DNA of 57,298 nucleotides from Parcubacteria group bacterium. Lineage in GTDB: Bacteria; Patescibacteriota; Minisyncoccia; Phycocordibacterales; Phycocordibacteraceae. The stretch spans positions 1-57,298 of the forward strand of contig JAQBQR010000020.1 of the NCBI GenBank assembly GCA_028286945.1, given 5' to 3'. How positions within the stretch are numbered: position 1 is the first letter of the stretch; the number at the start of each line of letters is the position of its first letter. Both the position numbers and the translations under genes were made by a program. Shown in pieces: positions 1,291 through 54,521 of the stretch. A model generated the notes under the pieces. It was not told the origin of the DNA, searched no databases, and was given only the letters and a program-made list of their open reading frames with translations.

Positions 1291-2538
1291 GTGGCTAACA
1301 TTATCGCAATCGCCTTAGTAGCCGCACCAGTTGCGGTGAGCGGCCTCTCGGCCGGCTTCCTGTACTGGCTGGCAAAGGGCAAGATATTCGTAACCGCCCC
1401 TAAGGAGGGGACGGTTGAAGCGGTCATGCGCAATAATGGATTTGATCATCTGATCATGCTCTATGACGGCCATCACCTGAACACACCGGGCAAACCCTGG
1501 TTCGACGAAGATCAACCGAAGGGCGAAGTTCTCGCGGACGATCCGGAGGTGAACTACGATGACCGCAACTTCTTTATGAAGTGGCTCAATATCTACTACG
1601 TCGGTCTGCCGCCCATTTTCACTGTCCATTCGTACTTTTTCAGATGGGTGGAAATGAAAGGAACGGAGCCCTGCAAACGGGCAGAAACAAGCCGCTTCAC
1701 GCGAGTCGTTTCTACTTCGTACGTCATCGAGATCAAGGGCGCGAAGAGCAAGGAGGGTATCCCCCTCCTACTCAGGGTCCTCGTCACGCTACGCATCGTA
1801 AACCCTTACCGGGCGTGGTTTGGCACCACGGACTGGCTGGAGACTATCACCGGGGCAATTACCTCGGGCGGGCGAAACTTCACCGGTTCGAAGTCCTATG
1901 CAGATCTCACCTCTGAGTCGACCCTGCCGGATGGTACGATCGACAAAACCGGTGCTGATCTGCTGTGCACGACGATCCTGTCTCTCAACACCATCCTCAC
2001 CGATGGGACTGCGGGAATTCATGAACGATACGGTGTCGAACTGGATATGATTAACATCCAGGAAATGGACATCGATGCACCGCCGGAGGAAAAAGCTAAG
2101 CTCCTGAAGGATACGCTTGCTCGGTACAACGCCGACAACGTCGCCTACACTACCAGGGTTGAGGGTGAAGCACAGGCCGACGCTACCCTCGCAAAGGGGA
2201 CAGCGGACGCTAAGGTCATCGTACTCGATGGTATGGCGAAAGCCGGTGCCATCAAGGCGAAGGGCTTGGCTCGCGCTGAAGTCCTCCGTGCTCAGCTCGC
2301 TGAGTGGAACAATGGGGGCCAACTTAATGCCCTCGTTGCTCAGACGAAGGCAATGGAAGCTGGCAAGGGCGATCGCACTATCTTGTGGGCGCAAAACCCC
2401 TGGGTGCAGGCGGTTCCTGGACTAGCTACGGTGCTTAACAGTCTGGGCGTTAAAACCGCCAATGAACTGGAAGCGGCCCTGGAGACAAATAAACCTGAAG
2501 AGACTACGGCACCTGAACCTACGGAGGAAACAGCATGA
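1291..2538 (+). CDS. SPFH/band-7 (stomatin/flotillin/HflK-like) membrane protein
   Basis: The GTG start is 5 nt after AAAGGAGAG. An N-terminal TM helix is followed by a core (IKGAKSKEGIPLLLRVLVTLRIVNPYRAW...). A C-terminal Ala/Lys/Glu-rich helical region follows (EGEAQADATLAKGTADAKVIVLDGMAKAGAIKAKGLARAEVLRAQLAEW). This matches SPFH architecture, but the family call is by eye only. Visibly GC-richer than neighbours (36/60 G+C at 2221-2280). Confidence 0.55.
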   Translation: MANIIAIALVAAPVAVSGLSAGFLYWLAKGKIFVTAPKEGTVEAVMRNNGFDHLIMLYDGHHLNTPGKPWFDEDQPKGEVLADDPEVNYDDRNFFMKWLNIYYVGLPPIFTVHSYFFRWVEMKGTEPCKRAETSRFTRVVSTSYVIEIKGAKSKEGIPLLLRVLVTLRIVNPYRAWFGTTDWLETITGAITSGGRNFTGSKSYADLTSESTLPDGTIDKTGADLLCTTILSLNTILTDGTAGIHERYGVELDMINIQEMDIDAPPEEKAKLLKDTLARYNADNVAYTTRVEGEAQADATLAKGTADAKVIVLDGMAKAGAIKAKGLARAEVLRAQLAEWNNGGQLNALVAQTKAMEAGKGDRTILWAQNPWVQAVPGLATVLNSLGVKTANELEAALETNKPEETTAPEPTEETA

Positions 2539-3320
2539 AATATTCTCGAAGTGTTGGGAGGATCACCCTTGCGGTGATCCTCCTCGCAGTGGTAGGTGTG
2601 CTGTTGTACGCCTACCCAACCTACTGCCTTTGGCTGGTCGTGTTGGTGATTGCGGCTTTCGCCGGGTACCTGACATGGCAACGCCTGACTGCAGGTGCAA
2701 CTGAAACAACGGATTCGGACGACAAAACCAGTCGTCCACCCAAGCTAACGGTCGTCCCCAAAAAGGACGCTCATGGAAGTGGTCTCAGTATCATTGCCAT
2801 TATCGCCATTTCCATTGGCAGTTGCTTGGTCATCCTGGCACTGGGCTGGTTTTTCCTGTATGGGGCTGGAAGCATCCCCCTATTTGGAGACCCGGGCACC
2901 GTGCACCACGTCAAGGTTCACGCATCGGCGAGAGCTTCGACACATGGGGGACGCTCACGCGTTTCCCTGGCCGAGGCTCGGGCTAAGGCGAAAACTGCAG
3001 CACTGGCCGAGCGTACCCGCATCTTGAAGCTCAAGATCGCGGTCGACTTCGACTACGACCACCCGCCGAAATGGACGCAGAATCCATACGGCGAATACGT
3101 TCTGCACTACAAGCTGGTTGTGGGGAAACGGCTTTTCATCCAATGCTCAGCATCGGACGACGAGCCTGATTTCCATGCGAAAGCCGATGACCTGGGCTAC
3201 TTCTGCTCGCCTGAGATGGCGACGGGAGCGAACTCGGGAAACTGGTTCCGCCCACTCGCCTATTCCAAGGAAGAAGGCAAAGAGCAGGTCATCATCTGGT
3301 TTACGCCGAAGGCCGTGTAA
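2535..3320 (+). CDS. Hypothetical membrane protein, translationally coupled to the SPFH-like gene
   Basis: ATGA start/stop overlap with the upstream gene, and GGAGGA lies 6 nt upstream. Two N-terminal TM helices, one central TM helix (LSIIAIIAISIGSCLVILALGWFFLY) and a C-terminal soluble domain. No recognisable motif. Confidence 0.6.
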   Translation: MKYSRSVGRITLAVILLAVVGVLLYAYPTYCLWLVVLVIAAFAGYLTWQRLTAGATETTDSDDKTSRPPKLTVVPKKDAHGSGLSIIAIIAISIGSCLVILALGWFFLYGAGSIPLFGDPGTVHHVKVHASARASTHGGRSRVSLAEARAKAKTAALAERTRILKLKIAVDFDYDHPPKWTQNPYGEYVLHYKLVVGKRLFIQCSASDDEPDFHAKADDLGYFCSPEMATGANSGNWFRPLAYSKEEGKEQVIIWFTPKAV

Positions 3321-7715: not shown

Positions 7716-10184
7716 CTACAGCGCAACCATCGAAGCAATGGAATCACCTTCACGCATTTTCATAATGCGAACTCCTTGCGTAGCGCGTGAAAGACTTGGG
7801 ATTTCGCCGGCAGATACGCGGATAACCTGACCCTTCTTTGAGATAACCACGATCTCCTCTTCTTTTGCTTCGTCGCCAATGAGGACGCGTGCACCAATAA
7901 TTTCTCCGGTCTTTGGGGTAACGTCGGCGGTCTTAATGCCTGAACCACCACGGCCTTGGATTTTGTACTCAGTGAGCGGCGTCTTCTTTCCGTATCCGTT
8001 TGCCATGATGATGAGGAGCGCCGCGTTCTTAGGGTCGGCATTCACCACTTCAGCAGACACGATGCGGTCGTCGCCCTTAAGACTCATTCCGCGAACGCCT
8101 GCAGCCGTGCGGCCCATGGCGCGTGTTTCCGCTTCTTCAAAACGAATACTCTGACCCTTTGAGGTAACTATAGAAATACTGTCTTCTGCAGCAGTAAGGT
8201 GTGCAGCCACAAGGCGGTCATCTCCCTTAAGATTGATAGCGATAATGCCAGAGCGGCGAACATCGGCAAAGGACTTTGCTTCAACCTTCTTAATGGTTCC
8301 TTGCTCTGTGACGAGAAATACTGAAAGCGCATCGCGTGCAGCTCCCTTCGGCGTTGCCAATACGCTGGTGACTTTTTCGTCAGCAGTCAGTGAAAGGAAG
8401 TTCATGATGGACTTACCCTTCGTGGCGCGCTTACCTTCGGGGATGTCGTACATCTTTGTTTGATATGCCTTTCCCTTATCAGTGAAGAAGAGGAGATCAC
8501 TGTGCGCAGATGCCTTGAGGAAGTGCGTCACCACATCCTCTTCCTTTGTTGAAATATCAATAACGCCTACGCCGCCGCGCTTCTGCGCTTTAAATTCGTC
8601 AGGGTTATTTCGTTTTACATAGCCGCCGGCGGTAAGTACCAAAACACTATCCTCGTCAGGAACAAGGTCTTCAACAGAAATATTCTTTACCCCACCTTTA
8701 ACAATCTTTGTGCGACGTGCATCAGCATACTTATCGGCAAGTTCAGAAAGTTCGCTGCGTACAAGAGCAAGAATGTTTTTTGCTGATGAAAGAATTTTCT
8801 TAAGGCGTGCAATGATCGTCTGGAGCTCAGATAATTCGTCTTCGATCTTCTTACGTTCAAGGCCAGCCAAAGTTTGGAGGCGCATAGAAAGAATGGCGGC
8901 TGTCTGACGCTCGGAGAATGCGAACTTTTTAATCAGGTTCTTTGATGCTTCTGGCACATCCTTTGCTTTCTTAATGATGGCAATGACTTCGTCAATGTGA
9001 TCGAGCGCTTTTGAAAGTCCGAGCAAAATATGTTCACGCTCTTCAGCCTTGCGGAGTTCGTATTCGGTGCGACGTTGTACTACGAGCTGGCGATGCTTAA
9101 TAAACTCTTCAAGCATGCCTTTGAGTGAAAGAGTTTGTGGGACTCCATCCACCAGTGCCAACATGTTGTAGTGAAAGGTGCTTTCAAGTTCCGTGTGCTT
9201 ATACAAAGAGTTCAGTACGGTCTGTGGATGCGCGGTTCCCTTAAGTTCCACTACTACGCGAATGTCAGACGTTGATTCATCGCGAAGATCACGAATACCT
9301 TCAATCTTTTTGTCTCGTACTAAATCAGCAATACGCGTAATGAGGTCTGATTTATTAACGCGGAACGGAATTGAGGTGATGACGATGTTCGTTCCCTTTT
9401 TGTCCTCGATAATCTCAGCTTCACCGCGAACCACTACGCCGCCGCGGCCTCCCGTGTATGCGTGTTTGATATCAGCCTGATTAAAGGCGATGCCGCCCAT
9501 TGGAAAGTCAGGTCCCTTAACAAACTGAAGGAGATCTTCCGTGGTTGCATCTGGGTTATCAATCAAATGCATCGTGGCGTCCGCAATTTCACGCAGGTTA
9601 TGCGGCGGGATATTCGTCGCCATACCCACAGCGATGCCGAGGGCTCCGTTAAGGAGAAGGTTTGGTGCTGCCGCAGGCAGCACCGTTGGCTCCTGTTTTG
9701 ATCCATCAAAGTTTGGCGCCCAGTCAACCGTTTCTTTTTCAAGATCTTCCAACATAGCTTCGGCCATGCGTGACATCTTCGATTCTGTGTATCGGTATGC
9801 AGCAGGCGGGTCACCGTCGATGGAACCGAAGTTTCCCTGGCCTTGTACGAGCGGATATCGCGTAGAGAAAGGTTGTGCCAGCTTCACCATGGCGTCGTAC
9901 ACAGATATGTCACCATGAGGATGGTACGAACCGAGCACCTCACCGACCACAGTTGCTGACTTACGGAACTTTGCCGTTGGCGTAAGACCTGTCTGGCGCA
10001 TAGCAAAAAGAATGCGTCGGTGCACAGGCTTCAGTCCGTCACGGACATCAGGAAGCGCACGACTCGTTATAACGGTCATCGCGTAGTCAATATATGACTG
10101 GCGCATCTCAGCCGTGATGGACTGATCTATGATGCGTTCCATCGCTTTAGGTGCTCCTGGTTCTGGTGCCTCGTTCTTTGCCAT
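7716..10184 (-). CDS. gyrA: DNA gyrase subunit A
   Basis: [27 protein letters not shown], active-site region AAYRYTESK and C-terminal beta-pinwheel repeats. 822 aa. Confidence 0.97.
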
Positions 10185-10193
10185 ATTAAAAAC

Positions 10194-10571
10194 CTAAAAC
10201 GCAATGTTAGTTGCCGACTGATTATTGGGGTTGCTCGTCGTCGCAAACGAAGAAGAGGTATTGCCGTCAACGATAGTGAGCGCAGGCTTACTGGTAGTGC
10301 CATTCGTTGCGGCGCCTACGGCGCCGAGTAATTGTGAAAAGTTAGACTTCACTCCCGTCCCCGCAAGAGTAGAGGAGTCAGCAGTAGTGTTTGTAGTGGC
10401 AGTTTGATCTGAGCCAACGGACGTATTACCAAGAGCAAATGTGTTGCTCGTTACCATTGAAGCAATCCAAATAAGTCCCACGAGTCCAGTCACCCCAGCG
10501 CTAGCACCCACCGCAATTCGCTTGCGTACGAGTTCGGGCTTTTCTTTCATATTGGCGATGAGTTTCTTCAT
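10194..10571 (-). CDS. Hypothetical membrane-anchored Ser/Thr-rich protein
   Basis: One TM helix (GVTGLVGLIWIASMV), then a low-complexity T/S/N-rich ectodomain. Confidence 0.5.
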   Translation of the reverse strand: MKKLIANMKEKPELVRKRIAVGASAGVTGLVGLIWIASMVTSNTFALGNTSVGSDQTATTNTTADSSTLAGTGVKSNFSQLLGAVGAATNGTTSKPALTIVDGNTSSSFATTSNPNNQSATNIAF

Positions 10572-10586
10572 AAGCGTTGTGTGAAG

Positions 10587-11228
10587 TTATGCCGTTATCA
10601 CTATGATAGCACCGTCTTTATCTGCAACGTCCTTTTTCTTAAGTGTTAGCTTGTCCACTTTTTCAGACTCTTCTCCCTCCTCTTTAAGGAATGCCTCTAG
10701 TGACTTTGGTGTGCCCATGCCACTCCAGTGCATTGGAATAACAATTTTCGGTTCAAGCATGGTGGCAAGCTTGCTCGCCTCAGCCGCATCAAGAACGCCG
10801 TCTCCACCCACCGGTACAAAAAGCACATCGATCTCATCAATTGCTTCCTTAGCATCTGCTGGAAGATTAATTCCCGTCATAGCGCCCAAGTGAACGAGCG
10901 TCATTCCTTCGAGTTTTACTGAATACATCGTGTTCATTGCTTCAGCCTGACCCTTCGCTAGGGCATATTCACTTTTTGTAAGAAATCCCTGCACGGTGAT
11001 TCCTTCTTTTTCATATTCACCGGGTCCGCTGACCACAAACGGTACCTTTCCACCAAACGATACTTCATCCACCCCATTCATATCTGGATGGTTTCGAGAG
11101 ATGAGGGCGATGTCAGCGCCGAAACGAACAGCCGGAAGTGTTCCAGTTTTTGAGATGGGGTCGAATACCAATGTAAGGTCTCCGAACGTGACTTTAAAGC
11201 ACTGGCCGCCGTGATGAGTGATAACCAT
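10587..11228 (-). CDS. MBL-fold metal-dependent hydrolase (UPF0173-like)
   Basis: MVITHHGGQCFKVTFGDLTLVFDP start, a later LVHLGA...DVLFVPVGG...PMHW pattern, and 213 aa, typical for this family. Confidence 0.6.
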   Translation of the reverse strand: MVITHHGGQCFKVTFGDLTLVFDPISKTGTLPAVRFGADIALISRNHPDMNGVDEVSFGGKVPFVVSGPGEYEKEGITVQGFLTKSEYALAKGQAEAMNTMYSVKLEGMTLVHLGAMTGINLPADAKEAIDEIDVLFVPVGGDGVLDAAEASKLATMLEPKIVIPMHWSGMGTPKSLEAFLKEEGEESEKVDKLTLKKKDVADKDGAIIVITA

Positions 11229-11420
11229 GTTCTCTCTATTCTACCATTTTCGTATAAACCTGTCGCTTTCATGAAGTGGTTATTTAGGTTGTACACAGGC
11301 TCACGGTACATATCCTGAACCTCTTATTTCAAGTGCTATTCTATACAAGTTACTTTTCATCCAATTTGAATTTACCTATGACACTTTCAGGCGCAGGTCA
11401 CTAATTAGTGAAATGAAGAA

Positions 11421-11457
11421 GACAAAGGAGGATGCGCTTCGCGCATCCTCCTTTGTC
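11421..11457. other. Orphan perfect 17-bp stem hairpin
   Basis: gacaaaggaggatgcgc-ttc-gcgcatcctcctttgtc. No gene on either strand ends next to it. Confidence 0.6.
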
Positions 11458-11579
11458 TGTGCCTGTTTCAGGCTACCCTTTGCCCCATTTCGTTATCAAC
11501 CTTTCTCCTTCGACAGCTCCTTAAGGGCGTGCTACTTTCCTGGGGTTGGAGGTTGCTCTAACAAAAACAGGAGGGAAGA

Positions 11580-11951
11580 ATGCGTAAGACATATCTCGCA
11601 TTGATCGCCGTCGTGTTCGCAAGCACTGCGTTTGCAACGCCGGCACTGGCAAGGTCGCATGATCGGACGCACACGGGCCAGTCGCCCGCTGCTCCGGCAA
11701 AGCGACATGCACGTCCGAACGGCACCCGTCACCACAAGAGTGCTAAGTCGTCGACGAGCGACGCCGACGCACAGGACTTGATTCTGGTGCCGGTCCTGAA
11801 TGGTCAGCCGAATCCGAATAATGATGAGGCTATGGATTCCGACGACGGCACGTTCGAACAGCCTGCTGATGGCATCACCCTGCAAGATGCCATCGTGGTG
11901 CTGATTCCGAACGTTAACACCTACGCTCCCGTCATTTCGGACCCGACCTGA
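11580..11951 (+). CDS. Hypothetical small secreted protein (123 aa), GC-rich cassette
   Basis: AGGAGG 5 nt upstream of the ATG. Signal peptide MRKTYLALIAVVFASTAFATPALA. 42/60 G+C at 11641-11700. A hairpin cccgacta...tagtcggg followed by ctttcgattt lies downstream. The overlapping minus-strand ORFs are Arg/Cys-rich shadows. Confidence 0.6.
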   Translation: MRKTYLALIAVVFASTAFATPALARSHDRTHTGQSPAAPAKRHARPNGTRHHKSAKSSTSDADAQDLILVPVLNGQPNPNNDEAMDSDDGTFEQPADGITLQDAIVVLIPNVNTYAPVISDPT

Positions 11952-12100
11952 TCTTCATCGACGAGGTAGATATCCGCCTCGCACAACCCACAGCCAGGGA
12001 ATATATGGCCACAAACAGGGGCCCGACTATGACGCACTTATGTGCTGTCCTCTAGTCGGGCTTTCGATTTACCCTTTATATACAACGTTTCTCACAGGGG

Positions 12101-12130
12101 TTGACAACTTTCAATGCAATGTGATAGATT
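12101..12130 (+). promoter_or_regulatory. Sigma70-like promoter (TTGACA, 18-nt spacer, TGaTAGATT extended -10)
   Basis: TTGACA at 12101-12106 and TG at 12122-12123, then TAGATT at 12125-12130. Confidence 0.45.
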
Positions 12131-12186
12131 CCGTGTGCTGATCCTCAGCGCAGGAGAAATGTCATGCCCCGGGCACCTTCAATAAC

Positions 12187-12330
12187 ATGAATGGGAAATT
12201 CGACCTCAACAGCGGCGGCCGGCTCGACGGTTCGGGCGGCAGCGGCACGATGATCACCGGCGCGACCGCGTCCGGCAGCAATTATTTCACCATGTCGATC
12301 ACCAATTCCGGCGGCGGCGCCGACACCTGA
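12187..12330 (+). CDS. Hypothetical 47-aa Gly/Ser/Thr-rich peptide
   Basis: MNGKFDLNSGGRLDGSGGSGTMITGATASGSNYFTMSITNSGGGADT. Too short for the ORF track. Its ATG overlaps (ATGA) the stop of an 8-codon ORF (12164-12190, MPRAPSIT) that itself sits 6 nt after AGGAGA. The unit is flanked by a promoter and a terminator on the same strand. Confidence 0.3.
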   Translation: MNGKFDLNSGGRLDGSGGSGTMITGATASGSNYFTMSITNSGGGADT

Positions 12331-12405
12331 TCGCCCGGCTCGGCGATCGAATGCCGTAACAACAAGTTCTCCACCTGGACTCCCCGTCCTCGTCGGTGGA
12401 GCAAA

Positions 12406-12456
12406 GGGTCCGGTTCGGAAGCGCATGCAAATGCGATTTCCGGACCGGGCTTTTTC
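12406..12456 (+). terminator. Intrinsic terminator of the Gly-rich peptide unit
   Basis: gggtccgg...ccggaccgggc outer stem with an inner gcgcat/atgcg stem, followed by ttttt. Confidence 0.6.
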
Positions 12457-12553
12457 TATTTATATAAATGAATATCTCGATGCGAGTTATGCACTTCTCT
12501 CCTTCTTAGTTGGGCGGTACCATATCCCCTCACCACAACAGGAGCGTTTGGTT

Positions 12554-12718
12554 ATGAGTGACACTGAGAATGATCTTTTTGGGCACCCGGTCTCGAAACA
12601 AGGTGAGGTCGAGCCACCTGCCGAAAGCAAACCGGAACCCAGTCCCCATCCGAATCTCTTCGATCCGATGGACAATGGCCGCAACGAGTTTGACGACTCG
12701 CCTTGGCGAAGCCGATAG
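12554..12718 (+). CDS. Hypothetical 54-aa acidic, Pro-rich (probably disordered) protein
   Basis: AGGAG 9 nt upstream of the ATG. MSDTENDLFGHPVSKQGEVEPPAESKPEPSPHPNLFDPMDNGRNEFDDSPWRSR. A terminator follows. Confidence 0.4.
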   Translation: MSDTENDLFGHPVSKQGEVEPPAESKPEPSPHPNLFDPMDNGRNEFDDSPWRSR

Positions 12719-12754
12719 GCATCAATATTGAATTGATATCACATCAGGAGAGCC

Positions 12755-12779
12755 GGCGGGTCCCATGACCCGCCTTTTC
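12755..12779 (+). terminator. Intrinsic terminator
   Basis: ggcgggtc-ccat-gacccgcc followed by tttt. Confidence 0.65.
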
Positions 12780-12909
12780 CTTTTTGCCTATATATGGTAC
12801 TTTTTCCTCATCGCGAGGGCGCATATAAGCCGCGAGCAGGCTATCCCTGGTTTAGGATTCGAAAGAATCCGCCAGTACCTGCCGCGTACACGCCCCGCCA
12901 ACATTTATA

Positions 12910-14043
12910 ATGCCCGAAGACACAAAGGCGCCTGCGCCAGTTGTTGCCTCATTTACGCTCGACGCTAGCCATCCAATGGCAAAGCACATCGACAACATCA
13001 CAACGCCACCTGTAGCAGGTGACGTTGTTGAAGGAACTATTATTGAACTTGTACGTGGACGTCTCTACGTGGATCTTCCACCATGGGGTGCCGGTATCAT
13101 TTACGGACGTGAATACCTCAACGCTGCTGACGTTCTCCGCAAGGTAAATCCTGGAGACACCATCACCGCGAAGGTTGTTGACCCTGCAGGTATTGATGGC
13201 TACATCGAACTTTCTCTCAAGGAAGCTCGTCAGGCCGCTATCTGGGGAGAAGCAGAAGCCGCTATCCTTAACGGAAACACGTTCAACCTCACCGTTGAAG
13301 AAGCAAACAAGGGTGGACTTATCCTCTCGTGGCAGGGCATCAAGGGATTCCTTCCTGCGTCCCAGCTTTCAAAGGATCACTATCCACGCGTTCCTGAAGG
13401 AGACAAGGATAAGATCTTTGGCGAACTTCTAAAACTCCAGGGCACTCAGCTTTCAGTTCGCATCATCACTGCTGACGCGAAGGAAGGAAAACTTATCTTC
13501 TCTGAAAAGAGTGGCGAGGAAGAGACAGAAAAGACAAACCTTATTGATAAGTACCAGGTTGGTGACACCGTTGACGGTGAAGTAACCGGTGCTGTTGACT
13601 TCGGTGTCTTCGTGAAGCTTGAGCAGGGTCTTGAAGGTCTCGTTCACATCAGTGAGCTCGACTGGGGACTTGTTGAAGATCCACGCACTATGTACGCCGT
13701 CGGTGACCGCGTTCAGGTGAAGGTTATTGAGATCAAAGACGGAAAGGTTTCCCTCTCAATCAAGGCACTTAAGGACAATCCTTGGAAGCTCGCTTCAGAG
13801 CAGTACAAGAAGGGTCAGGAAGTTACGGGCGTTATCATCAAGTACAACAAGCACGGCGCCCTCGCTTCTATTGAAGAAGGAGTTGCCGGCCTTGTTCACA
13901 TCAGCGAGTTTGCGACTCCCGCAGAACTCCGCGAGACACTTGAGCTTGGTAAGACGTATCCATTCACCATTACCCTCTTCGAGCCAAAGGATCAGCGCAT
14001 GACGCTTACCTTTACCGGAGAGAAGAAGGGTGCGAAGAAATAG
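12910..14043 (+). CDS. rpsA: 30S ribosomal protein S1 (four S1 domains)
   Basis: Repeated S1 OB-fold units, e.g. GDVVEGTIIELVRGRLYVDL, VGDTVDGEVTGAVDFGVFVKLEQGLEGLVHISEL and GQEVTGVIIKYNKHGALASIEEGVAGLVHISEF. Confidence 0.9.
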   Translation: MPEDTKAPAPVVASFTLDASHPMAKHIDNITTPPVAGDVVEGTIIELVRGRLYVDLPPWGAGIIYGREYLNAADVLRKVNPGDTITAKVVDPAGIDGYIELSLKEARQAAIWGEAEAAILNGNTFNLTVEEANKGGLILSWQGIKGFLPASQLSKDHYPRVPEGDKDKIFGELLKLQGTQLSVRIITADAKEGKLIFSEKSGEEETEKTNLIDKYQVGDTVDGEVTGAVDFGVFVKLEQGLEGLVHISELDWGLVEDPRTMYAVGDRVQVKVIEIKDGKVSLSIKALKDNPWKLASEQYKKGQEVTGVIIKYNKHGALASIEEGVAGLVHISEFATPAELRETLELGKTYPFTITLFEPKDQRMTLTFTGEKKGAKK

Positions 14044-14059
14044 TCTCGACCCAATACAG

Positions 14060-14093
14060 AAAAAGGCCGGATGCTTCGCATCCGGCCTTTTTC
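14060..14093. terminator. Bidirectional terminator shared by rpsA and pth
   Basis: aaaaaggccggatgc-ttc-gcatccggccttttt. Confidence 0.8.
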
Positions 14094-14099
14094 TTTTGA

Positions 14100-30896: not shown

Positions 30897-30963
30897 AAGT
30901 GCTTATATGACTCGCCTATCCTATCATTTTCCGAAGAAAATGATATCGTATCAAAGTTCACAT

Positions 30964-39821: not shown

Positions 39822-39899
39822 AGTACCCGTTTAGGGTATGGCCATCGTACCACATTGACTTCATTTCTTCATCTCCCCAAACACCCTCACGCAAGCCAA

Positions 39900-41529: not shown

Positions 41530-41560
41530 ATGCGAGAATCAAACAAAGGTAGAGTAGCAC

Positions 41561-48851: not shown

Positions 48852-48863
48852 TTTCACATTATA

Positions 48864-48898
48864 CCACAGAACCCGCTACTTGGTAGCGGGTTCTGTGG
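48864..48898. terminator. Perfect 15-bp hairpin between nrdJ and rnpB
   Basis: ccacagaacccgcta-cttgg-tagcgggttctgtgg. Confidence 0.55.
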
Positions 48899-52465: not shown

Positions 52466-52500
52466 AGTGGCAGTAAACCGCATTCTTTAGGGGACACGAC

Positions 52501-54318
52501 ATGAGTCGCATTACCGTCGCGAGGGGGGTGTGGACCACATTCCGCACGTCCTTCACCAACGTCCATCGCGAACTGCTTAGCATCGATCGCACCTACGTCA
52601 TATACGAATGGTGTAGCGATATTCTCGGTACTGTTCGCACTCTGGGAATCGTTGTTGCCGGTGGAGCGATTCTACAAGAAGCGCTCCGTAAGTCCACACC
52701 TTCGTGGACACTGGTGCTTATCGGAATGATGGGGTTTGCGCTTTACAGCGTATTCACCACCCTTCTACACAGTTGGTTAACCGAACGCGGCGAGATCTTT
52801 GACGCCTTATACTTCACACAAACCGAACGTCGCATGGCGAAGCATCTTTCGACGCTTGATCTCGGCAGAATGCTGGACCCTGCGTTTCTCGAGCTTTCCC
52901 AAATGGCAGATCGGAGAGGCACTCACTCGATCAATAGCTTATGGAGTACGCAGCGACAAACGGTTGCCGCCGCTCTTGGCATTCTGCTATCTTCGGCAAT
53001 TATATTGAATCTCGATCCATTTCTCGGACTACTTGCGATATGCTTCGCGCTTCCGCAAGTACTCCGTACGTGGTTCAGGGAGAAGCGACATCGTGAACTG
53101 GACGAGCAAGAAGCGCTTACTCGTCGGCAGCGAAACGAAGTGAATGAGAGTATATCGGTGGCTCGCCTTGCGGTGACCACTCGACTGCTCTCGCTCACGA
53201 GATCGTTCGTCGACTATTACGACGATCTTACCGCAGTACTGTTCAATAATATCCGCGTGCTTGCTCGATTCAACCGCCACTGGCGGCTCGGGATCGGGTT
53301 GATCGAGATGGTCATCCTCTGCCTATTCCTCTGGCACTTTGCCAGCGGGTTGGTTGGGGGGAAATACACGATCGTTGCAATGGCAGCAATCTTCGCAAGC
53401 ATGCACATGCTTTCGAGTGAACTGTCAGGCTTCGGCAGCTCTCTTGCGCACATGGATCATCTCCAGCGCGACTACGACTATCTCGTTTCGTTCTTCGAGA
53501 CGAAGCCGCTCGTGGATGAGAGCCTCTGCAGCGACGTACAGTTCCGTCACACACCGACGATTACGGTCGACCATGCGTCGTTCACGTATCCCGGTTCCGG
53601 CGATCCTGCACTTCGCGACTGCTCGCTCATCATCAAGCCCGGTGAGAAAATCGCGCTTGTGGGCAAAAACGGCAGCGGGAAGACAACCCTGCTCCGCATG
53701 CTCGCTCGTGTGTATCTTCCTTCATCGGGAACGATCCTTGCGAATAGCACATCTCTCGCAAAGATGAAGCAAAACGCCTGGCTCGGACATGCGGCGATGA
53801 TCGTTCAAGACGGAATGCTCACCGGTGTCGAGCTTGCGCGGGCCCTGACCGGAAAACCGGCAGATGCACTGAGCGCAGAAGAGCTCGATCGCCTATGGAA
53901 AGCACTCGAGCTCACCGACGCAAAGTCCCTCGTACTTGAGGATCCGCGCGGACTTTCGGTCTGGAACGGACCGGAATGGCCGAACGGTCGAGGTTTCTCG
54001 ACCGGCCAAGAGCAGCGATTGCTGCTTGCAGCTGGCATGTATCGGGCCCTTGAAGCCCAGATGCATGTAGTGATGCTCGACGAGCCAACGGCAAATTGCG
54101 ATGCTGAGATGAAGGCAAACTTCTTCTCCGCTCTTGCGAATGCGCCTGAGCTCGCTCGGCATACGATCCTCGTGAGCATGCACGATCCTCTCTATCTGCA
54201 CTTTTTCAACCGCGTGCTGCAATTCGAAAACGGCATGCTGGTGAACGATTTGCGGAACCCGGAGGAAATCGAAAAGTATAGGAAAGACATCGCGCTTTCA
54301 CTCGCGCATGATCTATAA
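52501..54318 (+). CDS. ABC transporter, fused permease/ATP-binding half-transporter (type I exporter fold)
   Basis: N-terminal about 330-aa TM domain. Walker A GKNGSGKTTL, signature FSTGQEQRLLLA, Walker B VVMLDEPT and H-loop SMHDP. Confidence 0.85.
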   Translation: MSRITVARGVWTTFRTSFTNVHRELLSIDRTYVIYEWCSDILGTVRTLGIVVAGGAILQEALRKSTPSWTLVLIGMMGFALYSVFTTLLHSWLTERGEIFDALYFTQTERRMAKHLSTLDLGRMLDPAFLELSQMADRRGTHSINSLWSTQRQTVAAALGILLSSAIILNLDPFLGLLAICFALPQVLRTWFREKRHRELDEQEALTRRQRNEVNESISVARLAVTTRLLSLTRSFVDYYDDLTAVLFNNIRVLARFNRHWRLGIGLIEMVILCLFLWHFASGLVGGKYTIVAMAAIFASMHMLSSELSGFGSSLAHMDHLQRDYDYLVSFFETKPLVDESLCSDVQFRHTPTITVDHASFTYPGSGDPALRDCSLIIKPGEKIALVGKNGSGKTTLLRMLARVYLPSSGTILANSTSLAKMKQNAWLGHAAMIVQDGMLTGVELARALTGKPADALSAEELDRLWKALELTDAKSLVLEDPRGLSVWNGPEWPNGRGFSTGQEQRLLLAAGMYRALEAQMHVVMLDEPTANCDAEMKANFFSALANAPELARHTILVSMHDPLYLHFFNRVLQFENGMLVNDLRNPEEIEKYRKDIALSLAHDL

Positions 54319-54331
54319 CGTACCTTACCCT

Positions 54332-54364
54332 TACCCCGCCTACACCAGGCGGGGTACGTTTTTA
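54332..54364 (+). terminator. Intrinsic terminator of the ABC cassette
   Basis: taccccgcc-tacacca-ggcggggta followed by cgttttta. Confidence 0.7.
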
Positions 54365-54386
54365 TAGCAACCATTTGTAGCTACTT

Positions 54387-54422
54387 CGGTCTCTCAGTGG
54401 CAGCCAAAAAATACAGAGGTAG
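54387..54422 (+). repeat. Direct repeat, copy 2 (presumed ancestral 3-prime end of ogt)
   Basis: cggtctctcagtggcagccaaaaaatacagaggtag. In the ogt frame it would read ...VSQWQPKNTEVGK then stop. Confidence 0.9.
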
Positions 54423-54434
54423 GGAAGTGAAGTG

Positions 54435-54521
54435 CGGAGACGGAGAGATTCGAACTCTCGAGACCCTTTCGAGCCTGCCGCCTTTCCAAGGCGGTGCACT
54501 AGACCACTATGCGACGTCTCC
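54435..54521 (-). tRNA. tRNA-Ser (anticodon GGA), long variable arm
   Basis: Reverse complement. Acceptor ggagacg/cgtctcc, anticodon stem ccgcc/ggcgg with loop ttGGAaa, T arm gagag-ttcgaat-ctctc. Confidence 0.88.

Follow-up and report, generated by a model that had tools for sequence, protein, structure and literature searches.

Variable ORFan hotspots are known between core genes of bacterial chromosomes, where syntenic flanks enclose differing content and the cargo is free of homologues, atypical in composition and without a mobility gene of its own. Small cassettes arranged in series are familiar from integrons, in which they are mostly promoterless, are expressed from Pc and carry attC at their 3' ends, with IntI and attI adjacent. 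A further type is represented by the promoter-early stem-loop (PeSL) mini-cassettes found in the hyperplastic regions of T4-like phages, which are thought to be shuffled at promoter/terminator junctions. Here we analysed positions 11421-12780 of a 57,298-nt stretch of DNA (contig JAQBQR010000020.1 of a Parcubacteria group bacterium, the whole of which is called the window below), located between the gene of a metallo-beta-lactamase (MBL)-fold hydrolase and rpsA. An earlier inspection of the letters without database searches (the sequence-only reading) had recognised there three mini-units encoding small peptides and had taken them for stacked foreign cassettes. Our analysis indicates that the stretch is probably this genome's private filling of a variable MBL-rpsA slot found across a clade of Kaiserbacteria-like Paceibacteria, and that it consists of orphan units most likely brought in by lateral replacement. 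The closest relatives of the rpsA, gyrA and MBL genes of the window were metagenome-assembled genomes (MAGs) labelled Paceibacterota, Kaiserbacteria or Parcubacteria, and a soil metagenome was the sole public run containing the stretch; judged by these affinities, the window is part of a Kaiserbacteria-like Paceibacteria genome of the Candidate Phyla Radiation (CPR) from soil. Coordinates of all features are collected in Table 1.

The comparison of the MBL-rpsA region among sister genomes, which the sequence-only reading had proposed as a check, revealed kept flanks and differing gap content. A total of 160 relatives' loci were fetched, and the hairpin and signal-peptide counts given below derive from 75 genome-collection relatives. 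The order gyrA-tm125-MBL-gap-rpsA-pth, where tm125 encodes a 125-aa membrane protein, was kept in about 75 of 80 species-level genomes and in the majority of the 160 loci. The gap itself, 1681 bp long in the window, ranged from 133 to 3010 bp among the relatives (median 1038), and those with 86-90% identical S1 had gaps of 324, 426, 492, 998, 1330 and 1590 bp. When confronted with all 160 loci, the window gap could be aligned only at 12775-12909, where the rpsA promoter and leader lie, and no DNA- or protein-level match to 11229-12775 was found in any of them. Between moderately close relatives, blocks of a few hundred bases had been gained, lost or replaced, the ends of the gap being conserved. 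The content of the gaps was strongly oriented: terminator-like hairpins, present in numbers of 1 to 6 per gap, amounted to 105 on the rpsA strand vs 11 on the opposite one, and small open reading frames (ORFs) with a Shine-Dalgarno (SD) sequence and a signal peptide lay on the rpsA strand in 15 loci and on the other in 3. Some of the slot ORFs formed families spanning species (family A in six loci, family B in four), and other cargo included a retropepsin-like protease with a membrane anchor as well as a 350-aa protein of unknown function. Since the relatives' gaps are built alike, the train in the window is better understood as the local filling of a clade-wide slot than as a singular insertion, and the idea of a one-off arrival of foreign DNA had to be abandoned in favour of variable, co-oriented arrays of mini-units occurring throughout the clade.

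The slot thus has the attributes of an ORFan hotspot, namely conserved syntenic flanks, variable length and content, orphan cargo of atypical composition and the lack of a mobility gene. It differs from the hotspots described so far in holding an ordered, co-oriented train of very short monocistronic units, as reflected in the 105:11 bias of the terminators, and in lying directly upstream of the rpsA promoter, recurrently at one and the same site across the clade. A search of the literature found nothing on the MBL-rpsA slot. Within the first ~230 nt of the gap, five relatives' loci (L010, L012, L014, L036 and L044) share a GC-rich element of about 150 nt that is conserved and resembles a small RNA. 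It is closed by a terminator some 200 nt away from the MBL start; Rfam gave no match to it, and by sequence the window does not have it. The gap between rpsA and pth (14044-14099 in the window) also varies, from 67 bp in L012 to about 3.7 kb in L022, and may be a second variable site.

The products of the three units, ORF123, ORF47 and ORF54, proved to be orphans. Among 5.8 billion proteins, ORF123 matched itself only, ORF47 matched nothing, and the sole match of ORF54 was the window's own gene call of 95 aa, a longer version that we rejected on finding its start within the unit 2 terminator. A full HMMER search over 1.84 billion representatives added only low-complexity matches in multiple stretches. 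In agreement with the claim that none of the products has a recognisable domain, no credible match was obtained in Pfam, PHROGs or NCBIfam; the best domain candidate, the WGxxGxxG family for ORF123, was discarded, having scored 16.8 bits vs a cut-off of 35 and covered the signal peptide only. Back-translated scans of JGI metagenomes and IMG/VR gave no match to the three ORFs, nor did searches of phage and plasmid DNA, and no paralogue was present within the window. Likewise, phmmer and profile searches of the three ORFs against six-frame pieces of the gaps of 75 relatives returned nothing significant. At the RNA level, Rfam yielded nothing in the gap, either at the gathering threshold or at E values up to 10, and nothing in eight relatives' loci. 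The sequence-only reading had itself held that lack of conservation of the ORFs would speak against it, and none of the three was conserved anywhere searched. Its statement that no mobility gene is present was borne out, the neighbours being gyrA, the 125-aa membrane protein gene, MBL, rpsA and pth.

The stretch is also set apart by its composition. Its G+C content was 0.551 vs 0.493 for the whole window, as had been noticed (the earlier count of 42 G+C in the 60 nucleotides at 11641-11700 was exact), and the highest G+C of any 200 nt in the entire window, 0.66, fell at 12201-12400, in ORF47. In tetranucleotide distance the stretch ranked 6 of 330 windows of equal size, about 2.8 standard deviations above the mean, and the sliding-window signature was therefore not the uniform one that the sequence-only reading had named as contrary to its proposal. 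Further GC-richer and compositionally deviant stretches occur at 52500-54500 and 1700-3200, the former being the strongest tetranucleotide outlier of the window. At the level of codon positions, GC1/2/3 (G+C at first, second and third positions) were 0.61/0.48/0.65 for ORF123, 0.44/0.60/0.85 for ORF47 and 0.64/0.44/0.56 for ORF54, compared with 0.58/0.42/0.50 in long host ORFs, so that GC3 of ORF47 (0.85) stands against about 0.49 in host genes. Regarding synonymous usage, the host codon table ranked 97, 111 and 83 of 118 clade tables for ORF123, ORF47 and ORF54, respectively, and 2 and 7 of 118 for the host rpsA and tm125; ORF47 was best fitted by clade members with a core GC3 of 0.82-0.90. 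This poor fit of the three ORFs to host codon usage suggests a lateral origin, and to this extent the foreign look attributed to the stretch was sustained. Codon usage is compatible with exchange inside the clade, without constituting proof of it. Among the relatives, slot ORFs with a signal peptide had on average a GC3 0.26 above that of the core genes of the same locus. Values of 0.72-0.98 were seen in lineages with a core GC3 of 0.47-0.91, high-GC3 slot ORFs being present in L001, L003, L005, L009, L024, L025, L027, L031, L033, L039, L049 and others.

Within the window, the mini-units form a self-contained stack on the plus strand, consisting of ORF123 (unit 1), an 8-codon upstream ORF (uORF) overlapping ORF47 (unit 2) and ORF54 (unit 3), and their ORFs, signals and hairpins were located where the sequence-only reading had put them. 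A G+C-rich hairpin followed by a U-run, as expected of a Rho-independent terminator, closes each of the three units, and this part of the earlier description was confirmed by folding (z from -5.0 to -7.7 over the set of hairpins). Folding energies were compared with those of shuffled sequences, and for none of the four hairpins did any shuffle fold as well. The core of the unit 3 terminator is GGCGGGTC-CCAT-GACCCGCC (12755-12774); this terminator adjoins the rpsA promoter, and most relatives have a terminator at this place. The remaining hairpin, at the left edge of the stretch, was terminator-like in either direction, its plus-strand U-run being imperfect, and an extended -10-like motif precedes it by about 80 nt. 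In many relatives a terminator on the plus strand is found some 200-350 nt from the MBL start, and similar hairpins, purine-rich in the 5' arm, occur at that place in L081 and L085. We count three units and probably four: the left hairpin probably closes a separate upstream unit (unit 0) and does not belong to unit 1. The SD sequence assigned to unit 1 needed a similar correction: an AGGAGG copy at 11427-11432 sits inside the left hairpin and does not serve ORF123, and a working AGGAGGG is found just upstream of its start codon.

As for promoters, that of unit 2 is the best match of the region (10 of 12 positions), and its previously proposed hexamers were confirmed, with the addition of a TG extension. 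The candidate promoter of unit 1, which the sequence-only reading did not contain, was identified by eye and shares its -10 with the rpsA promoter; it had been missed by the promoter scan, its -10 hexamer matching just 3 of 6 positions. Stacked, co-oriented small units with a hairpin at each end, often orphan and subject to modular gain and loss among relatives, resemble an integron cassette array, and a loosely integron-like organisation had indeed been put forward. A site-specific array of this or another type is nevertheless very unlikely here. No IntI or other integrase or recombinase occurs among the neighbouring genes and no attI or attC at the locus, the first of which the sequence-only reading had already remarked, together with the lack of obvious attC-type repeats. 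The unit ends share no repeat family, only short and probably chance repeats, and the hairpins differ in sequence and are followed by U-runs, as in Rho-independent terminators. Moreover, units 1 and 2 carry promoter-like sites of their own, unlike integron cassettes. Two direct repeats upstream of units 1 and 3 (D1 and D5) were followed up and did not extend on alignment.

The atypical composition raised the question of whether GC-rich DNA of another soil organism had been joined to a CPR contig during assembly. An independent Logan assembly contained one unitig (10069-11963) covering MBL, the left hairpin and all of ORF123, and another (12220-13372) covering ORF47, ORF54, the leader and the start of rpsA, so that both borders are bridged at an even depth of 11.5-12.8. 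The soil run is probably the MAG's own source, and Logan represents here an independent assembler, not independent data. Between the two, breaks in the unitigs fall at 11934-11963 and 12220-12249, and an alternative path of 62 nt and depth 6.5 joins 11963 to 12220 via CG. Missing from this path are 256 nt (11964-12219), which comprise the terminator of unit 1, the promoter and uORF of unit 2 and the first 11 codons of ORF47; no new ORF arises from the joining. The depths do not add up (main path 11.6, flanks 11.5 and 12.8, 62-nt unitig 6.5), and the 62-nt unitig may represent either a haplotype with a deletion, present in a minority, or an artefact. The breaks and the alternative path are, besides composition, what could speak for a chimera. 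We regard one as extremely unlikely, given the bridged borders, where no chimeric junction was seen, and the GC-rich filling of like kind that relatives have at this site.

Regarding the products, ORF123 begins with the signal peptide MRKTYLALIAVVFASTAFATPALA, composed of an n-region (MRK), a 16-residue hydrophobic core (TYLALIAVVFASTAFA) and a c-region (TPALA), after which RS follows. The call was made with a heuristic of our own and by reading the sequence, looking for a positive n-region, a hydrophobic h-region of 10-16 residues and small residues at -3 and -1, all of which ORF123 has, and the protein is probably Sec-exported. Past the signal peptide there is a basic half rich in His, Arg and Lys, followed by an acidic half with two similar hydrophobic motifs (DLILVPVLNG and DAIVVLIPNV). 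The suggestion of secreted effector-like peptides therefore held for ORF123 as far as the export signal is concerned, and failed for the other two products, which lack one; a function of the products at the cell surface or in interaction with a host is conceivable. Codon-position G+C periodicity fell in precisely the frames of ORF123, ORF47 and ORF54. Two minus-strand ORFs, of 117 aa (11532-11885) and 93 aa (12145-12426), were considered and rejected: they have TTG or otherwise poor starts and Arg/Cys-rich products, and their GC1 exceeds GC3, as expected antisense to a GC3-rich gene.

A number of observations weigh against the interpretation of the stretch as laterally replaced orphan genes in a shared slot. 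Part of them concerns descent. ORF123 resembled the family A profile marginally (E = 0.4), and shuffling gave likewise marginal outcomes against L001 and L003, with p = 0.02 for the L003 slot protein (L003_475), which has PADGIT and a similar layout in common with it; similarities of this order demonstrate neither common descent nor independent acquisition of ORF123. The placement of internal block edges right after plus-strand terminators in the relatives, although above chance (14 of 43 vs 4.0 ± 1.8 expected), comes from genome pairs that are not independent and could be yielded by promoter selection alone. An alternative would be vertical inheritance without any lateral transfer: the three ORFs would be slot genes orthologous by position to the small secreted proteins of the relatives, from which they would have diverged past recognition. 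In keeping with this, the neighbouring tm125, syntenic across the clade, is just 27-54% identical between relatives, which shows how fast small non-core proteins diverge here; of 2191 six-frame pieces compared with the family A profile, ORF123 and ORF47 came among the best 12, and a raised GC3 is common to slot ORFs of many lineages. We nonetheless consider vertical descent improbable. All three ORFs fit host codons badly, in contrast to the fast-evolving tm125, the gaps of the nearest relatives (324-492 nt) are too short for these units, and no similarity score was significant.

Other observations concern expression, and they too count against genes in the proper sense. No public RNA run contained the stretch; unit 3 has no convincing promoter, with TATAAA (12463-12468) and TACCAT (12518-12523) as weak candidates; an SD is missing for ORF47 itself, and the protein collection has no gene call for it; the AlphaFold2 single-sequence model of ORF123 was uninformative (all coil, pLDDT 52.9); and the 62-nt unitig may suggest that part of unit 2 is dispensable or polymorphic. 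A rival view is that the transcription units are real but that some or all of their ORFs are untranslated, the units being young orphan small RNAs or captured DNA in decay and without function. The lack of homologues, the missing SD and gene call of ORF47, the stability of the hairpins, a structured 3' part of unit 2 (12330-12465) that folds well (z -4.4) and a possible haplotype missing the unit 2 promoter and the start of ORF47 all agree with such a view, which we hold to be unlikely, if less so than vertical descent. It does not account for a periodicity found in exactly the named frames and extreme in ORF47, for ATG codons with well-spaced SD sequences in ORF123, the uORF and ORF54, for the complete n/h/c signal peptide of ORF123, or for the relatives' ORFs with SD and signal peptide at the same place and on the same strand, some of them members of cross-species families.

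Taking the local filling of a clade-wide slot as the preferred reading, the locus would operate as an array of short, self-contained transcription units, all directed towards rpsA, in which strong intrinsic terminators would insulate the units from each other and the last hairpin would shield the conserved rpsA promoter and leader. Unit 0 would give rise to an RNA of about 110 nt, running from TGCTATTCT to the left hairpin. Unit 1 would encode a small protein of about 10 kDa, Sec-exported, cleaved after ALA24 and probably disordered. From its near-consensus promoter, unit 2 would produce an RNA of about 320 nt on which a well-placed SD would drive the 8-codon uORF. The stop of the uORF overlaps the start of ORF47 by ATGA and, as ORF47 lacks its own SD, translational coupling to the uORF is the mechanism we infer: the 47-codon ORF, if translated, would most likely be so by termination and reinitiation. 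Unit 3 would encode an acidic, Pro-rich peptide of 54 aa. The units were most likely gained through lateral replacement of slot content between conserved flanks, with GC-richer members of the same clade as possible donors, and integron-type site-specific capture seems an unlikely route.

The slot shares with PeSL cassettes the presence, between conserved genes, of small orphan ORFs provided with a promoter and a stem-loop terminator; in the relatives, block edges after terminators were in excess, as mentioned above. The differences are that it lies on a cellular CPR chromosome and that, in the window, no extended sequence is common to the junctions, the upstream regions of the units not aligning. 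A bolder proposal, which we offer tentatively and hold to be doubtful, is as follows: the slot could be a dedicated expression site, where promoter-small ORF-terminator cassettes for exported or surface peptides are exchanged in a PeSL-like manner at terminator/promoter junctions, supplying these episymbionts with strain-specific surface factors or factors for host interaction. If this were true, the high GC3 would stem from circulation among GC-rich clade members or from frequent gene conversion.

Two further elements came to light in the course of the analysis. The motif TGnTAnnnT is rarer in the window than expected (70 matches vs 92 ± 9), yet it stands directly upstream of the RNase P RNA gene, of 4 of the 8 tRNA genes and of MBL. 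Sites at 48858-48866 (-), 39844-39852 (-), 41551-41559 (-), 30918-30926 (-), 30941-30949 (+) and 11238-11246 (-) precede the genes for RNase P RNA, tRNA-Phe, tRNA-Arg, tRNA-Ser(cga), tRNA-Glu and MBL. Because it is depleted overall yet placed immediately before RNA genes and MBL, the motif behaves like an extended -10 element in this organism. Four copies lie on the plus strand of the gap, starting at 11334, 11530, 12122 and 12795, in front of the left hairpin, unit 1, unit 2 and rpsA, respectively. The second element is the structured 5' leader of rpsA, a gene without SD. Its parts are a long interrupted helix (GCGaGCGGG with CCCGC-CGC), an internal loop (CUAUCC/AGUA), a stem in which CUGG pairs with CCAG, and a variable hairpin with a GNRA or UUCG cap; RNAalifold gave 12 consensus pairs, 11 of them with compensatory changes, and no match was found in Rfam 15. 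It is a candidate S1 autoregulatory leader.

Table 1. Features of the MBL-rpsA slot and its flanks, in window coordinates (energies in kcal/mol; z relative to shuffled sequences).
Feature	Position	Strand	Remarks
tm125 (125-aa membrane protein)	10194-10571	-	between gyrA and MBL
MBL-fold hydrolase gene	10587-11228	-	Pfam Lactamase_B_3
Extended -10-like motif TGCTATTCT	11334-11342	+	candidate promoter of putative unit 0
Orphan hairpin (left edge)	11420-11458	.	perfect 18 bp, 3-nt loop; -33.8, z -7.0
Candidate unit 1 promoter, TCGACA-N17-TACTTT	11510-11515 / 11533-11538	+	TG at 11530-11531; sequence reading
ORF123 (123 aa)	11580-11951	+	SD AGGAGGG 11569-11575, ATG start
Unit 1 terminator	12020-12070	+	branched hairpin 12020-12062, then UUCGAUUU; -27 to -28, z -5.3
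Unit 2 promoter, TTGACA-N18-TAGATT	12101-12130	+	TG extension, TGATAGATT at 12122-12130
uORF (8 codons, MPRAPSIT)	12164-12190	+	SD AGGAGA 12152-12157
ORF47 (47 aa)	12187-12330	+	Gly/Ser/Thr-rich, without signal peptide
Unit 2 terminator	12400-12457	+	long hairpin, then UUUUUC; -37.1, z -7.7
ORF54 (54 aa)	12554-12718	+	acidic, Pro-rich; SD AGGAG 12540-12544
Unit 3 terminator	12746-12784	+	hairpin 12746-12781 and U-run; -22.6, z -5.0
rpsA extended -10, TGGTACTTT	12795-12803	+	conserved right border of the slot
Structured rpsA 5' leader	~12805-12900	+	conserved in at least 59 relatives
rpsA	12910-14043	+	four S1 domains

For the annotation of these poorly known genomes, TGnTAnnnT is a usable promoter marker, and the covarying rpsA leader is of similar use. 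As to the GC-rich train itself, it is probably the local content of a hotspot of orphan small genes, not an integron, a mobile element or a misassembly. Across a CPR clade, almost each lineage has its own autonomous mini-genes at a single site beside an essential ribosomal-protein gene, many of them for signal-peptide proteins of high GC3. Such a slot lends itself to studies of the ways in which small surface or secreted proteins are acquired, tried out and lost by ultra-small symbionts, and it bears on the origin and spread of orphan genes in reduced genomes.

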